Below, piece by piece: positions 36,884 to 63,765 of a stretch of 64,000 nt of DNA. Positions within the stretch are counted from its first letter, which is position 1, and every line of letters begins with the position of its first letter. Below the pieces are notes generated by a model, which was not told where the DNA came from, ran no database searches, and saw only the letters and a list, made by a program, of their open reading frames with translations. The position numbers and the translations under genes are program-made. This stretch comes from a virus, in the UHGV virus genome UHGV-0038496, one strand, 5' to 3'.

Positions 36884-37594
36884 CTACATTCCATAATCCT
36901 CATCCTGCTTCTGAGCCATTCCATGATAAACTTCCCAGTACTTAGAGGCATACACCATATCCCATTCTTCCTGAGTCACCCATGCAATCATCCCACTGAG
37001 AATGTCTCTCACCTGTTCCCATTCTTCCCTTTGAGCAATAGCCTCTTCCTGTGTTTTGAATGCTTTCGCTATACGTTTTGTAACGGTATGACGAGTGACA
37101 GCAATACTTGCCCTCCAGTAAGTGTACGGGCCATTATGATATTCACTTACCCCACAAATACCAGACTTGTTAGTTTTGTGCATACCACTGTTAGTCATGT
37201 TCTGTAGGCGACTAACCAGTCTGAGATTGTCCAGGTGGTTGTTACCAGGGTCACGATCAATATGGTCAATCTCCATACCTTCCGGGATTGGACCATGATG
37301 CATCACCCAGATAATCCTTGCACCCTGGAGCAGAGTCTGTTTCCCGTCCACCAGCCAGCCTACAACATAGCGACCATCTTTAGCTGCATAGCTACCAGCA
37401 ACAGCCCCCTTCTTCGCATTAGAAGAACGAGTAAATTTATTCCTCAACACACCAAACTCAGCATCATAAACGAAATAGATGCTCCAGTCTGTAGTGTTAT
37501 ACACCTCCTCAAATTTCACCACAACTGTTTTGTTGTGATTGTTCTTCACAGCGTTATCATAATACGCCTGGGCATCAGCCTTGAACTCAAACAT
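36884..37594 (-). CDS. HNH homing endonuclease with AP2-like domain
   Basis: IDHIDRDPGNNHLDNLRLVSRLQN HNH motif; GICGVSEYHNGPYTYWRA AP2-like. Confidence 0.7.
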   Translation of the reverse strand: MFEFKADAQAYYDNAVKNNHNKTVVVKFEEVYNTTDWSIYFVYDAEFGVLRNKFTRSSNAKKGAVAGSYAAKDGRYVVGWLVDGKQTLLQGARIIWVMHHGPIPEGMEIDHIDRDPGNNHLDNLRLVSRLQNMTNSGMHKTNKSGICGVSEYHNGPYTYWRASIAVTRHTVTKRIAKAFKTQEEAIAQREEWEQVRDILSGMIAWVTQEEWDMVYASKYWEVYHGMAQKQDEDYGM

Positions 37595-38357: not shown

Positions 38358-38397
38358 TTATCCACAGGTGGCAGGGTTATCCACAGACTTATCCACA
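38358..38397 (+). promoter_or_regulatory. cluster of three perfect DnaA boxes (TTATCCACA)
   Basis: TTATCCACA at 38358-38366, 38377-38385 and 38389-38397, same orientation. Confidence 0.6.
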
Positions 38398-39410
38398 GCT
38401 CACGTATGACGCTACGCGGAATAATCACAGGTCAAACGACAGGAAACGAAAGGAAACGAAAACAATCGAAAGAAGATTAATTGCGGTTTATTACAGCACG
38501 AAAAGATTAATCATTGCAATAGTTAGCCTGCTATTAATTATATTTACAGGGGTGACAGTTACGTCATGTTACAGATGACTGGGCATCATATTGCACTGGC
38601 ACACTACCATACCAGCTATATAACATGCCCCACAGATGCATCTTATAACTGGTCTGACCACTTACGCATAAAAAATCGTTGACAAAAAGAGCGAAATTTG
38701 TTAGGCATACTTTCCCCATACTTCGGTCATACTCCCCCCACAGTTTACAGTTTGAAAAGCCCATAATCACACCTCAGGCCTCTGGCCTTCGAGGTAACGC
38801 AGTTACGAGACACGCATTGAAATCATAACATCCCATGACTGTTTACACAGCGTAGCACTGAGGCCCCGCCGATTTTACACATCTGACAGTTTACACGCAT
38901 GACAGTTTACGCCTTGATTTACAAGGAAATAGTTGCGACATGTAACTACCGCAAGACGGTATAGTTGCGCCGTGTTATCGTTGCATGTGTAACTTTACCG
39001 TGAAGCCATAGGCTGAATGTGTAACATTACTTCAGCGTTATTGTCACAGATCTGATAGTTTGCACTCTACTCTTAACCAGTGTTATAGTAACACCTGTTA
39101 CTACTACTTTTGACATAATAACGCTGGGAAAACGTAACCGTTTTTGATTATTAACATGTAATAACCCAGCGTTACCATAACAATTTTTATTGTTATTGGA
39201 GGACATAATAACGCTGAGGATTATTACATGATAATTTATGATATAATTTCGCTGGCTATGCCAGGTGGACTACGTCCACCCCGTAGGGCGTTATCATAAA
39301 TTAGCGAGATAATAATGCTGGATAATAACACGGGGGTGTTATTGTCACTCAGCGTTATTATGTCGCTCCCTCCGGTCGCGCCATGTTATCGTTGCATAAT
39401 GTGATTATTG

Positions 39411-39545
39411 CATTCGCAAATTATTATTTATCTTATTTTACTTTATGCAATTTATATATTTTCATTGATTGTAATTTTATTTATTTTATATTTTATTGTA
39501 TCTCATAATCTAATTATATTACTAATATTATACTATATAGATTAT
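39411..39545. other. AT-rich tract (candidate DNA unwinding element)
   Basis: About 130 bp of very high A+T with short ATTTTAT-type repeats. Confidence 0.45.
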
Positions 39546-40092
39546 TGAGATACAGAATAATCACCGCCTGAAAGTATATTAATCCCACAGCAGAATAGTC
39601 ACTGCATGAAATAATGTGGGGTGGGATAGTCACACCTCGGCATGACTGCCTTGCGGAATAATCACCATATTTACCACACCTGCCAGGTTGTTGAGAATAT
39701 TTCTCATATGTTAGCTATGCACTAATATTGCATAATTAAAACATACCTATCAGATGCATCTTATCGTGACGCTACGTGAAAAATAGAATTTTGCGCCTAT
39801 AGTTATACCCGATTTTTCAAAAAATGGACTTTATAACTCACTGTTTTATAAAGATTTATAGTTGTTGACACAGCCATATAAAATGTGCATCAGCCGAAAA
39901 GTGTGAGATACTTCACAAAATGCCCTACATTTGACAGCCGAAAACTGAAAAAACTTAAAAACTATGTATGCAAATACAGCTATTTTACTGTGTGGTTAAT
40001 TTTTAGGCATTTTATTTTATGCATTGTTTGAATACCGGATTCACAGCTTGCCCATGAAGCTACGCTGAATAAATCACTATATTACAGACAAC

Positions 40093-45329: not shown

Positions 45330-45636
45330 AATTTTAACTCCTCTGTTGTTGGTGGGGGGGGGGTATTCCCCTTTCAAGAATAAGTATACACACAACAGAC
45401 CACATTGCAAGAAAAATTTTATCAGATGATAACTATTCTCATTTTGCAGGAGGCAACACTTTTGAGTCTGGATCGCTTCGAGGTTGGCAATAGTGGAAGC
45501 GTTGAAATCGATTTTTAGGCACCTGGCAGGGCCTGTAACGGCCTGGAATGGTGGGGGCTTTACACTTGCATATCTTGCTGGTAAATCTTGATGGCGGGGC
45601 TTACAGGAAGGATTTAAAACACAGGAGGCAGGGCCA

Positions 45637-52289: not shown

Positions 52290-52318
52290 ATAATACTTTA
52301 TTTCTTTCTGGTGTCAAC
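52290..52318 (-). promoter_or_regulatory. sigma70-like promoter on minus strand (TTGACA, 17 bp spacer, TATTAT)
   Basis: rc TTGACA at 52313-52318 and rc TATTAT at 52290-52295; drives gene starting at 52240. Confidence 0.55.
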
Positions 52319-52323
52319 TCTTT

Positions 52324-52518
52324 TTAAAATTTTTTATCTTTAAACCAGTGTTTGATCTGGCCAGGTGTTAACGCACAACGGTTAAGATACTGGATTGTAT
52401 AGCTATTCCCCCGTTTAAACTTGTAAAGACCTTGCCCGTTGTTGATTGTTACGTCTACCTTTGCCGTTACCTGGTCGGCAACTGTCCGGCGGCGGCCTGG
52501 AAGGTTGTAAGCTAACAT
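52324..52518 (-). CDS. hypothetical protein
   Basis: ATG at 52518 with AGGAGAGG RBS. Confidence 0.4.
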   Translation of the reverse strand: MLAYNLPGRRRTVADQVTAKVDVTINNGQGLYKFKRGNSYTIQYLNRCALTPGQIKHWFKDKKF

Positions 52519-52537
52519 TTTTTGTCCTCTCCTGTGG

Positions 52538-52711
52538 TCATTTGTGGTTAAATTCACCAGCGGCGGCACCTGCTGCCATTACCATCATTTTTTCATAATC
52601 CAACCAGTTGATAAGCGCGTCACGCATTGCTTTACGGCGTTTATCGTCAACTTCACGACCATTAACGATAATTTCTCTTTCTTTTACGTTGTTGTTAACC
52701 ATGCCTTTCAT
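52538..52711 (-). CDS. small hypothetical protein (57 aa)
   Basis: Below ORF-track cutoff; ATG with AGGAGGA RBS. Confidence 0.4.
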   Translation of the reverse strand: MKGMVNNNVKEREIIVNGREVDDKRRKAMRDALINWLDYEKMMVMAAGAAAGEFNHK

Positions 52712-52719
52712 TTTATTTT

Positions 52720-53860
52720 CCTCCTACCTTGCGGCCTGATGTTTTGCTTTCCGTTTCCCCTTTGTTTCCCTTCACCTATAGAATACACCAGGCCATAGCC
52801 TGATCAATAGCTATATGGTAAAAGGTTGACATAGATCACACTACCAACCAGGTTGCAAGCCGGACTCCCCACCGGACCAGGGGAGGCGGCCCAGTGTACC
52901 AGGGCGCGGCCTGTTGGCCCCGCCAGGTTGCAGACTATCGGGGGATCGGTCGTGTGAATGTTGTAACTAATATTTTTCGAAAAAAGCTGTTGACATGGGG
53001 GCCGGATCTGTTATTATATAATCAAGCCGGGGCACCAGGGGCCGGGAGACAAACACCGGGGATGCGCGAAATATATTTTGAGAATGATTATCATTTAAAA
53101 AAATAGTTACTTACGGTGATTGATAGTAACCTAAGCAAATCGAGGTAATAACGCACGGTTAGTAATAGTTTTCTATAGAAATAGTAACTGACCGTGATTT
53201 ATAGTTGCGTGGTGTAATTAAAATAGTAACGCACGGTGATTTATAGTCACAAAGATTTGTAGTAACGGTGATAATCACTCATGAAACTATCTAAAATTTA
53301 GTTAGCAGGCTAATTACGTACCGTGACTATCCACCAAAAATGGTAGGGGGTAAATTTTTTCTATATAGAAATTCAAAATCCACTTTCAAAAATAAAAAAG
53401 TGCTTTCGTGCCTCAGGCGCAGGCCTAGCCAGAACCAGACCGAGATCCAGAATCCAAAATCGAAAATAAAAAACCTATCGAGAACCGAGGAAAAAGGCTG
53501 TCGAGATTTTCAGAATCCGCTTTCGATTTTGAAAAACAGATCGAGTACTTAGGGAAATTGCTGGGAAAGTCTCAGGATAAGTTGACAGGTCAATAGAGTA
53601 CTGTGTGGAAATGTGGGAAAAGATGTGGGGGAATATGTGCAATGCATATGCAAATACATGCATACATAATAGCAATAGGCTAAAATCTATTTGGCTAGTT
53701 TTCTAAAGTGTTGCTTATGCTTCTAAAAAATCCATTTTCGTACTCTCCTAATTGCCTAAGTTTTTTATAATTCCCAAATATCTGTAAGTATCTGATAAAT
53801 AAGGAGAAATCCACTACAGATTTCTCCTTGTAACCTAAAACTTTTATAATTCTCAAATCA
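52720..53860. repeat. second ORF-free repeat region with iteron-like ATAGTAAC...CGGTGAT repeats and 35-bp imperfect direct repeats
   Basis: At least four ATAGTAAC(N)ACGGTGAT(T)TATAGT copies in 53100-53290; three imperfect repeats in 53360-53545; palindromes 53600-53680. Confidence 0.55.
52992..53020 (+). promoter_or_regulatory. strong sigma70-like promoter on plus strand, opposite to flanking genes
   Basis: A-rich upstream tract, TTGACA, 16-17 bp spacer, TATTAT/TATAAT; no downstream plus-strand ORF; coordinates approximate. Confidence 0.5.
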
Positions 53861-54184
53861 CTTTTTCTTAAGCATCCGTTTTGGAGTTACCTCTGTCACC
53901 TCCCATCTGAATAATCCTACCCACCACCAACCATCAGCATGATAACTTTCAATGCAGCTCAAGCGTGCATGATCGAATGTGTAAGATAGTGCAATACTAT
54001 ACAAAGTGAACCAGTCTTTTACAGGTTGTGGGCCATATGCTCTATGCCAGCAATGACACAAGCTGAATGCTTCAAGGAAAGGCAGGAGTGCCATCTTGTA
54101 TCCTACCAGCGCCAGAGCAATAACCAAAGCACCTATAAACGTGATTCCTGCTACGTCTACACAGATTTCCCATACTTCATTCAT
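53858..54184 (-). CDS. membrane protein
   Basis: Hydrophobic helices. Confidence 0.4.
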   Translation of the reverse strand: MNEVWEICVDVAGITFIGALVIALALVGYKMALLPFLEAFSLCHCWHRAYGPQPVKDWFTLYSIALSYTFDHARLSCIESYHADGWWWVGLFRWEVTEVTPKRMLKKK

Positions 54185-54375
54185 TCTTTAGCACCTCTGT
54201 CAATGTACACTTTGCTTCTCATCCGCATGTACACTTGGTATCCATTCTCAAAAGTGAACAGGAGAACACGGTTACCTACAGACTCAATGCTTTTAACCTG
54301 TAGGATTTCGTGACGGCCTGGGATACGGATGCGATCCCCCGGTGCTACGATTGTGCAAGATTTAAGCTCGAACAT
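54181..54375 (-). CDS. hypothetical protein
   Basis: ORF in minus-strand array. Confidence 0.4.
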   Translation of the reverse strand: MFELKSCTIVAPGDRIRIPGRHEILQVKSIESVGNRVLLFTFENGYQVYMRMRSKVYIDRGAKE

Positions 54376-63507: not shown

Positions 63508-63765
63508 TTAATAGTGTTCAGGTTTTACAATAATCACATCTTCGAAAGTGCAATATACATCCTCTCCTTCATCATCTTGGAAGAGGAGACATTGCAGACC
63601 TTCTTCGGCGTAACGAATATCTTCTTCAGTGAGGTGAATACCAAGTTGTTCACAAAGTGCAATTAGCGGATTTTCACACATTTTCGCTTCATAGACTGCA
63701 CCAGCAGTGCAATCACGGAAAGTTTCATCAGAAATCAGTTTGTCTTCTTTGATCATAATTTTCAT
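63508..63765 (-). CDS. acidic Cys-containing small protein (paralog pair member)
   Basis: ATG at 63765 overlapping upstream stop (ATGA); LLFQDDEGEDVYCTFEDVIIVKPE. Confidence 0.4.
   Translation of the reverse strand: MKIMIKEDKLISDETFRDCTAGAVYEAKMCENPLIALCEQLGIHLTEEDIRYAEEGLQCLLFQDDEGEDVYCTFEDVIIVKPEHY

Follow-up and report, generated by a model that had tools for sequence, protein, structure and literature searches.

A conserved non-coding locus with a strong promoter, small RNA-like elements and a predicted Fur box in the rV5-like myoviruses

A Gene-Free Gap within the Leftward Gene Block

The window analysed here, a 64,000-nt stretch of the virus genome UHGV-0038496, contains a 1146-bp gap (52712–53857) inside a block of leftward genes; by sequence comparison, this gap is the window's copy of a non-coding locus conserved across the rV5-like myoviruses and left without annotation in nearly all records. 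It is oriented rightward, opposed to the flanking leftward genes, and includes a strong promoter (P_B), a short conserved segment immediately downstream of it (element B), a predicted Fur box and several families of repeats. The window belongs to a distant relative of the rV5-like myoviruses, as recognized by PHROG scans and tblastn: its gene products include DNA ligase, exonuclease, NrdD and prohead protease, and its proteins are 45–63% identical to those of Vequintavirus, while megablast of the window against deposited phages returned zero matches. Genes point rightward over the first 36 kb or so and leftward beyond about 37 kb. The features of the gap and its two neighbours are as follows.

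52538–52711, minus strand: leftward gene on the left side of the gap (phrog_21957), with a strong ribosome-binding site (RBS)
52780–52807, minus strand: weak candidate leftward promoter (TTGATC, 16 nt, TATTCT; 8 of 12 consensus positions, below the scan threshold)
52838–52962, plus strand: GC-rich element A-like segment, a putative diverged homologue of element A of other genera
52957–52989, plus strand: upstream motif TGTTGTAACTAAT followed by an A/T tract
52990–53017, plus strand: promoter P_B (TTGACA at 52990–52995, 16-nt spacer, TG-extended TATTAT at 53012–53017, TGtTATTAT)
53024–53076, plus strand: element B, with a predicted +1 at about 53024
53077–53095, no strand assigned: predicted Fur box TTTGAGAATGATTATCATT, with the 7-1-7 core TGAGAAT-G-ATTATCA
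53096–53290, plus strand: array of units of about 20–21 bp, ATAGTWAC-N3-4-CGGTGATT (repeat families D1, D5 and D6)
53302–53330, plus strand: palindrome TTAGCAGGCTAA, overlapping a weak candidate third promoter (TTAGCA, 17 nt, GACTAT; 8 of 12)
53368–53548, plus strand: three long imperfect repeats (families D2 and D3), the last ending in TTTCGATTTTGAAAAACAGATCGAGTAC
53549–53800, no strand assigned: non-coding tail, with AAATCCAYT motifs at 53376, 53728 and 53807
53801–53829, minus strand: hairpin followed by UUAUUUAU, a candidate terminator of the leftward gene 53858–54184
53858–54184, minus strand: leftward gene on the right side of the gap (phrog_2531)

Open reading frames (ORFs) of 39–70 codons are present in the gap. 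A six-frame comparison with seven relatives found translated similarity in all frames, with changes of frame between relatives (one 85-codon window frame aligns to the uncultured contig L015 in three different frames), and the indels between relatives are not multiples of three. Because the similarity spans all six frames and switches frame between relatives, the gap has no conserved ORF, in agreement with the first-pass annotation of this DNA, which had described the region as ORF-free; as judged from these alignments the pattern fits conserved DNA that has gained and lost bases rather than a protein gene, and hidden protein genes were rejected on this ground. GenBank records of relatives place small "hypothetical protein" coding sequences (CDS) over the promoter and elements A and B (L001 1656–1934 and 2270–2431; L144 817–989; L146 634–1265; L150 760–873), with calls that differ among records; these CDS are probably spurious, since no frame is conserved across relatives. 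No tRNAs were found in the window by ARAGORN, and no Rfam family reached the gathering score (E values up to 5 brought only noise for the window, and up to 1 nothing for six relatives). A tRNA identity was also considered for one relative, OY978796.1 (L141), whose record gives tRNA-Ile and tRNA-Met antisense to elements A and B (1627–1780); ARAGORN did not reproduce them, and the annotation is probably an artefact.

Conservation of the Locus among Phages

Blastn of the gap matched 156 phage records, with the strongest conservation at about 53000–53100, from the promoter to the Fur box, and reached Phapecoctavirus, which belongs to another subfamily. When the Seunavirus copy was used as query, a unit of 235–260 nt was found in 399 records at 70–85% identity, nearly always unannotated; these records span Seunavirus, Certrevirus, Mydovirus, Henunavirus, Phapecoctavirus, Justusliebigvirus and W70. 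The promoter-to-Fur-box segment is present in Vequintavirinae, Stephanstirmvirinae, Mydovirus, Certrevirus, Henunavirus and one Aeromonas phage, and where it is conserved the flanking proteins are only 45–50% identical. Synteny of the gap is kept in V18, JES2013, phiTE and others: the flanking genes of Vequintaviruses are about 1.5–1.6 kb apart, and V18 has an unannotated 1-kb gap at the equivalent position.

The nearest relatives of the window are the uncultured contigs L010, L015 and L080. A metagenome scan with a relaxed pattern returned mostly chance matches, with at least about five true homologues among the matches listed. The number of promoter-plus-B units differs among clades: Vequintaviruses (e.g., V18, L002 1646–1900) have two in tandem (u1 and u2), each followed by a Fur-type box, and the window clade has one, except for L015, which has two. 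What follows element B also varies by clade, with extra palindromes in Phapecoctavirus and Certrevirus, an additional promoter (P_C) in Seunavirus and Mydovirus, and ATAGTWAC/CGGTGAT units in the window clade. In the unclassified Aeromonas phage PhAER-3 (L151, 117 kb), a Fur-type box lies at about 620–760 together with a promoter and a B element whose hairpin is CCGG/CCGG and whose core is GAGACAAACACC; the element therefore reaches beyond enterobacterial rV5-like phages.

Promoter P_B and Elements B and A

P_B, with its TG extension, matches the sigma-70 consensus at 11 of 12 positions and is the sole strong site within 2 kb in the promoter scan, so the strong plus-strand promoter that had been proposed here is confirmed as a sequence feature; a promoter lies at the equivalent position in all relatives examined. 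The motif and A/T tract upstream of P_B are conserved in L010, L015 and L080, and the A/T tract may function as an UP-like element. Also upstream of P_B, GTAACTAAT makes up an inverted repeat with the first ATAGTTAC unit (I5, 86% complementary), and in the cross-genus comparison P_B is preceded by a duplicated TGTAAAGA motif. The Seunavirus locus has three tandem rightward promoters, the third of which, P_C, is also found in Mydovirus and matches at 10 of 12 positions.

Element B is the best-conserved piece in blastn (nhmmer E = 4e-20). It begins with a hairpin at +1, continues with the invariant core GAGACAAWCACCG (13 nt; the window copy is GAGACAAACACCG at 53046–53058) and, after about 20 nt, reaches the palindrome AAATGAGAAT-N-ATTCTCATT. 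In the window the hairpin, P1, is formed by CCGG at 53027–53030 and CCGG at 53042–53045. Because MAFFT cannot keep the hairpin in one register, P1 was examined through duplex energies: the 5′ segment of each copy was paired with its own partner or with the partners of other copies over 5000 permutations. The own-pair energy was −108.7, compared with a permuted mean of −74.6 (standard deviation 7.6), and none of the 5000 permutations was as good. Seven variants of the stem occur (GCGA/UCGC, GUGA/UCAC, GCGC/GCGC, CGCA/UGCG, CGGG/CCCG, CCGG/CCGG, and CCAG/CUGG).

Element A, in most genera, consists of a promoter (P_A) and about 115 conserved nt that follow it, with the conserved parts CGCC-ACCCCAC-GGCG-AAAAGGC-GGGG-CUAAC, then ACC(N)GG...CC(N)GGU, then GGAAGGUGGAUCGCCGGUAG. 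A model of helix S1, pseudoknot S2 and hairpin P3 leaves 83.8% of cells paired, with three pairs changed on both sides (for example, CCCC/GGGG becomes CCAA/UUGG in some sequences); its covariation score of 0.114 exceeds the 0.042 of shuffles (0 of 500 as high) and is above all slid controls. The element A-like segment of the window holds CCAGGTTGCA twice, GTACCAGGGCGCGG, GCCAGGT and GGATCG (repeat D15), and nhmmer with the Seunavirus A+B unit aligns to window 52884–53107 (E = 1.3e-9). RNAs A and B are probably real and carry small structured elements.

Two further observations concern the DNA upstream of element A. A small plus-strand ORF of about 60 codons (L006, about 936–1118) lies there in Seunavirus and Mydovirus; it is unannotated in GEC_vB_MG, its place is taken in Phapecoctavirus by an unrelated small plus-strand gene, and none is found in the window. 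In L003, the P_A spacer (1323–1351) contains a GC-rich hairpin and T-run that the scan reads as the terminator of the small plus-strand ORF just upstream, an arrangement that amounts to a compact terminator within a promoter; spacer hairpins of other sequence occur in other genera.

The Predicted Fur Box

The half-sites of the palindrome at 53077–53095 agree at 6 of 7 positions and are flanked by AAAT and ATTT. A position weight matrix (PWM) for Fur was built from a published table of Acinetobacter baumannii Fur boxes, in which training sites score 16.7–26.5 bits out of a possible maximum of 27.2. The window site scores 25.1 bits; the null maximum per 64 kb averages 13.9 bits, and only one site of at least 20 bits was found in 661 kb of unrelated DNA. 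The sequence TGAGAATGATTCTCA has been listed as the Fur box of the Enterococcus faecalis iron transporter operon EF3082–3085, which is derepressed 12–18-fold in a fur deletion. The window box matches it at 14 of 15 positions, relatives contain this 15-mer unchanged, and near-identical 25-mers occur in the A. baumannii table. Thus the site is like the 19-bp, 7-1-7 operators of these bacteria in sequence, dyad symmetry, flanks and PWM range, and it is a predicted Fur-binding site on that evidence. It differs from them in position: Fur operators sit over promoters, whereas the phage box lies about 50–140 bp downstream of one, in a virulent phage.

In the window the box spans +53 to +71 of P_B; across clades such boxes lie at +50 to +140 from P_B and 45–90 bp upstream of P_C. 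Relatives have two to four Fur-type boxes, most at exactly 29-bp spacing (ESCO13, tuntematon, phiTE, POP15, and KP13-16), and the arrays of three or four boxes set them apart from known Fur operators; exact 29-bp centre-to-centre arrays are found in Phapecoctavirus, Certrevirus (including phiTE) and Klebsiella phage KP13-16. The phased arrays lie at the following positions.

L003: 1581–1686
L140: 1719–1824
L152: 3012–3088
L147: 913–989
L019: 670–746

The halves of individual boxes vary independently, as is typical of protein sites and unlike RNA hairpins. An alternative arrangement, a Fur-repressed antisense promoter with the box in its spacer, was rejected, since such a promoter matches at 9 of 12 positions in the window but only about 8 of 12 elsewhere and went undetected by scans.

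Elsewhere in the window, the top Fur-type site is at 11454–11472 (AATGAAAATTATTATCAAT, 26.0 bits), 53 bp upstream of a gene for a RuvC-like resolvase (11507–12124). Two further sites, at 63748 and 38036, score at least 18 bits; those at 45425, 38255 and 42961 are weaker.

Repeat Arrays and Distal Features

The array downstream of the Fur box had been described as iteron-like, and the units are indeed there: ATAGT[ATC]AC occurs six times in 53103–53330 (17 times in the whole window versus 6.1 expected) and C[GC]GTGAT four times in the region, with unit spacings of 20, 42 and 58 bp. The units are also described by a 74-nt two-copy and a 16-nt four-copy repeat family. The GC content of the region is 0.27–0.37, without an extreme AT block such as that at 39400–39550. 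L010 and L080 have the full array and L015 a reduced one; there is none in Vequintavirus, Seunavirus or Phapecoctavirus. Within the units, CGGTGATTG corresponds to the B core CAATCACCG in reverse complement, exactly so in L010 and with one mismatch in the window, and A[AT]CACCG[GT] occurs four times in the gap, where about 0.1 is expected. Between the window and L010 the unit motifs are retained and the spacers drift, which indicates sequence-specific recognition of the units; recognition could be by a protein for which the core is another binding site, or the B core itself could base-pair with a read-through transcript.

The TTAGCAGGCTAA palindrome is found at matching positions in Vequintavirus and in the window clade, and the T5-like locus discussed below has two copies of it. 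The promoter that overlaps it may be functional; stronger promoters occupy the equivalent place in Seunavirus and Mydovirus. Beyond it, the three imperfect repeats reported earlier are present, at 53368, 53442 and 53505, as copies of about 32 nt with 72–78% identity. These repeats, which end in TCGATTTTGAAAAACNGATCGAGWAC, hardly differ between the window clade and Seunavirus or Mydovirus; the end of the unit is nearly identical in L010, V18, GEC and K45, and the phiTE copy of the locus has six GATCGAGACC units.

In the tail, the AAATCCAYT motif is confined to the 53-kb region within the window, a 52-nt two-copy repeat (D4) occupies 53728–53779 and 53807–53858, and the segment 53725–53857 is 77% conserved versus Vequintavirus. 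The inverted repeat near 53800 was confirmed, with 11-nt arms (AAGGAGAAATC at 53801–53811 and GATTTCTCCTT at 53819–53829) that are 100% complementary. The minus-strand RNA of this hairpin folds with −16.1 kcal/mol (z = −3.48); the hairpin is retained in L010 and L015, not in V18, and is a probable terminator of the leftward gene 53858–54184. At the other end of the gap, a second hairpin, flagged as terminator-like on the minus strand, lies beside the candidate leftward promoter at 52780–52807, just upstream of the RBS and ATG of gene 52538–52711.

The 38–39.7 kb Junction and the T5 Repeat Region 3

A link between the 53-kb region and the repeat region near 39.5 kb had been suggested from a shared motif. 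Motifs are shared, although they are mainly the Fur-type palindrome, GCCAGGTTG and TTAGCNNGCTAA rather than the ATAGTCAC originally named: GCCAGGT[TG]G occurs five times versus 0.8 expected, TTAGCNNGCTAA six times versus 1.9, and the palindrome GA[GT]AA-N3-TT[CA]TC at five window sites versus about 0.3. ATAGTNAC is weakly shared, with three matches in 38.6–40.1 kb. The junction of the two divergent gene blocks contains the following features and also holds the TTAGCCTGCTA palindrome.

38036, 38238, 38255 and 39690: Fur-type boxes
38358–38389: three perfect direct DnaA boxes TTATCCACA within 32 bp
39115–39365, both orientations: ATAATAACGCTGG-type repeats, at the divergent junction of the two gene blocks
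39400–39550: extreme AT-rich block

If the window holds a host-type origin, this junction is the best candidate for it; its motif content resembles that of the T5 injection-stop-signal (iss) region. A gene for an HNH endonuclease (36884–37594, minus strand) adjoins the 37–40 kb junction region.

The Seunavirus query also matched T5-like phages within their terminal repeat. The untranslated stretch of AKFV33 (L142, NC_017969.1, about 8.6–9.2 kb) has four Fur-type boxes of 21–26 bits (at 1216, 1573, 1677 and 1712) and another two of lower score, along with two copies of TTAGCCTGCTAA, boxes of the DnaA type and a GTGCAAATCCGACA repeat in five copies. This stretch is the T5 "Repeat Region 3," the proposed iss region, which has been described as extremely conserved and of unknown function and whose palindromes PalD–PalJ are unexplained. 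Like the locus of the window, it is untranslated, more conserved than the neighbouring genes and dense in palindromes and direct repeats, and both contain the Fur-type palindrome family and the TTAGCNNGCTAA palindrome. The two also differ. In T5 the region contains DnaA boxes in pairs and is located where the terminal repeat ends; in the window, DnaA boxes occur at 38.4 kb and not in the 53-kb region, which possesses a strong promoter of its own together with elements A and B. As rV5-like and T5-like phages infect the same hosts without being related, the simplest ligand to propose for the shared palindromes is a protein of the host. Within the limits of the searchable literature, no paper was found that links Fur to the T5 palindromes or describes Fur boxes in lytic phages.

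Discussion

We tentatively favour a reading in which the locus is an early, host-transcribed, Fur-gated unit of non-coding RNA and regulatory DNA, followed by lineage-specific and family-wide repeat arrays. It builds on the conservation of the locus, the absence of an ORF, the quality of the promoter, the covarying short helices and the agreement in sequence between the Fur box and published sites. Host sigma-70 RNA polymerase would initiate at P_B, and the first 55 nt or so of the transcript would be element B, in which the 5′ hairpin, probably RNA-stabilizing, precedes the invariant single-stranded 13-mer; such RNAs would be made and be stable. Fur is predicted to bind its box, and Fur-Fe2+ bound there could act as a roadblock that gates downstream transcription. 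Iron-replete cells would then contain mostly the short B RNA, while low iron would permit read-through into the units of about 20 bp, each of which bears the inverted B core, and on to the three conserved long repeats. The GC-rich segment at 52838–52962 would be the diverged counterpart of a second RNA, element A, for which other genera show a separate promoter and a pseudoknot that covaries. Trans-acting small RNAs (sRNAs) of bacteria and phages typically have a 5′ stem-loop and a conserved single-stranded seed. Element B is like them in its strong promoter, its conservation from +1, its 5′ hairpin and its unpaired segment of 13 nt, but it lacks a Rho-independent terminator, excess folding energy and an Rfam family.

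Several results weigh against this reading. The helices of P1 and element A covary, but the prediction that RNAalifold makes by itself has zero covariation, and the folding energies are no better than those of shuffles (z = +0.76 for window B, +0.03 for the window A-like segment and +1.16 for Seunavirus A). The helices that do covary are short, compensatory events are few and the sequences are phylogenetically related. A long-range helix in element B, P0 (AUGGCG with CGYYAU), was rejected because its own pairing was no better than cross-pairing (4622 of 5000). No intrinsic plus-strand terminator was found in 52300–54300, and so none after element B; among the relatives, ESCO13 alone has a weak terminator-like hairpin, and this lies inside its first Fur box. 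No sigma-70 promoter was recognized by the promoter scan upstream of the window's element A. No Fur box overlaps a good promoter on either strand in any clade, and the promoter-like matches that do overlap reach 8–9 of 12 positions and are inconsistent across clades. Finally, invariant blocks such as the 13-nt core are equally compatible with protein-binding DNA sites.

A rival interpretation is purely DNA-level: Fur boxes, TTAGCNNGCTAA palindromes and repeats would assemble a nucleoprotein complex, the locus being equivalent to the T5 Repeat Region 3, and transcripts would be incidental; such a complex could serve in genome entry, packaging, insulation or Fur titration. AKFV33 shares the palindrome family (four sites of 21–26 bits), the two copies of TTAGCCTGCTAA and the direct-repeat arrays, and its region is likewise highly conserved with unknown function; moreover, the palindrome halves vary independently, in the manner of protein sites, and the 29-bp phasing suggests ordered arrays of protein. 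We nevertheless consider this interpretation unlikely, as it leaves unexplained both the near-consensus promoter at a fixed upstream distance in all clades and the compensatory pairing of the hairpin right after +1, and the window has a single Fur box here. About as improbable is a secondary origin of replication, in which RNA from the strong early promoter would open or prime the AT-rich repeats and an initiator would bind to the units or the long repeats. Multiple origins are common in large phages, and transcription-primed origins are known from T4 (oriE, with early RNA and iterons), T7 and ColE1 (RNA II). The locus is like T4 oriE and ColE1 in having an early promoter, a partly structured non-coding RNA and then short direct repeats in AT-rich DNA. 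In favour of an origin, the promoter is directed into gene-free DNA of 27–37% GC, the direct repeats are spaced at multiples of about 20–21 bp, the triple long repeats are conserved across genera, and relatives have tandem promoters. It differs from those systems in having no recognized initiator gene and no enrichment of DnaA boxes, which in 52712–53857 are at background level (three one-mismatch matches versus about 3.8 expected). An origin at 53 kb is made less likely by this lack of DnaA boxes and by the clade specificity of the short repeats, which are limited to the window clade although replication genes are family-wide; the GC-skew switch of the window is at about 37 kb, not in the 53-kb region, and the 38–39.7 kb junction, with three perfect TTATCCACA boxes, an AT-rich core and repeats of its own, is a much better candidate. 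Of the three interpretations in the first-pass annotation, the non-coding RNA locus and the regulatory site gain support from the conserved promoter and its following 55 nt or so, the covarying hairpin and the Fur-type operator, and the transcription-activated origin is weakly supported at 53 kb.

Two other explanations are far less probable. An anti-defence array of decoy RNAs, in which the strong promoter would express repeats that mimic a host antitoxin or CRISPR RNA, has a precedent in phiTE, a member of the same phage group that evolves a repeat-containing non-coding RNA to escape ToxIN. This pseudo-ToxI locus is expressed during infection and has a variable number of repeats (PMC3475682). 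The short units of the window likewise lie directly downstream of a strong promoter and vary in number between close relatives, but pseudo-ToxI is a different locus of different sequence, and the phiTE copy of the present locus has no ToxI-like repeat. No similarity to ToxI was found in the window or in the phiTE loci, TRF found no tandem array of 34–40 nt of the ToxI type in the region, and the unit lengths of 20–21 and 63–74 nt do not fit type III antitoxins. The hairpin of element A loosely resembles the type I-E CRISPR repeat; mimicry of host sequences was rejected, since blastn against 5,426 Escherichia coli genomes gave no match even at E up to 1. Decoy RNA is thus a very improbable explanation, and hardly any weight is given to overlooked small protein genes such as those annotated in relatives (JES2013 ORF185 and ORF186). 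Small ORFs do exist in the gap and several GenBank records annotate small CDS there, but no frame is retained across relatives, matches switch frame with indels that are not in threes, and the ORFs called there run antisense across the promoter and element B, differently in each record.

A wider proposal, which we regard as speculative and rather unlikely, is that phased Fur-box arrays and strongly expressed sRNAs are a shared device with which unrelated virulent enterobacterial phages recruit or titrate Fur, as part of the iss of T5 and as an iron-status checkpoint in the early programme of rV5-like phages. Fur bound to incoming DNA could be part of the iss because the T5 boxes sit where genome injection pauses.

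The kinds of component found here are known, but no earlier description appears to exist of the locus itself, of its RNA elements A and B or of virulent phages with phased arrays of Fur boxes; a literature search on an origin or non-coding RNA of rV5 found nothing relevant, within the limits of the searchable literature. Several hundred sequenced rV5-like phages carry the locus, many of them therapy candidates, and it is better conserved than the surrounding genes, yet it is unannotated or covered by spurious small ORFs; annotators now have a clear reason not to call ORFs in this gap. If the favoured reading of a Fur-gated non-coding RNA unit is true, A and B would stand as two new families of phage RNA, the injection-stop palindromes of T5, which have been unexplained for decades, would gain Fur as a concrete candidate ligand, and virulent phages would be seen to embed high-affinity sites for a global regulator of their host, tying infection to the availability of iron.

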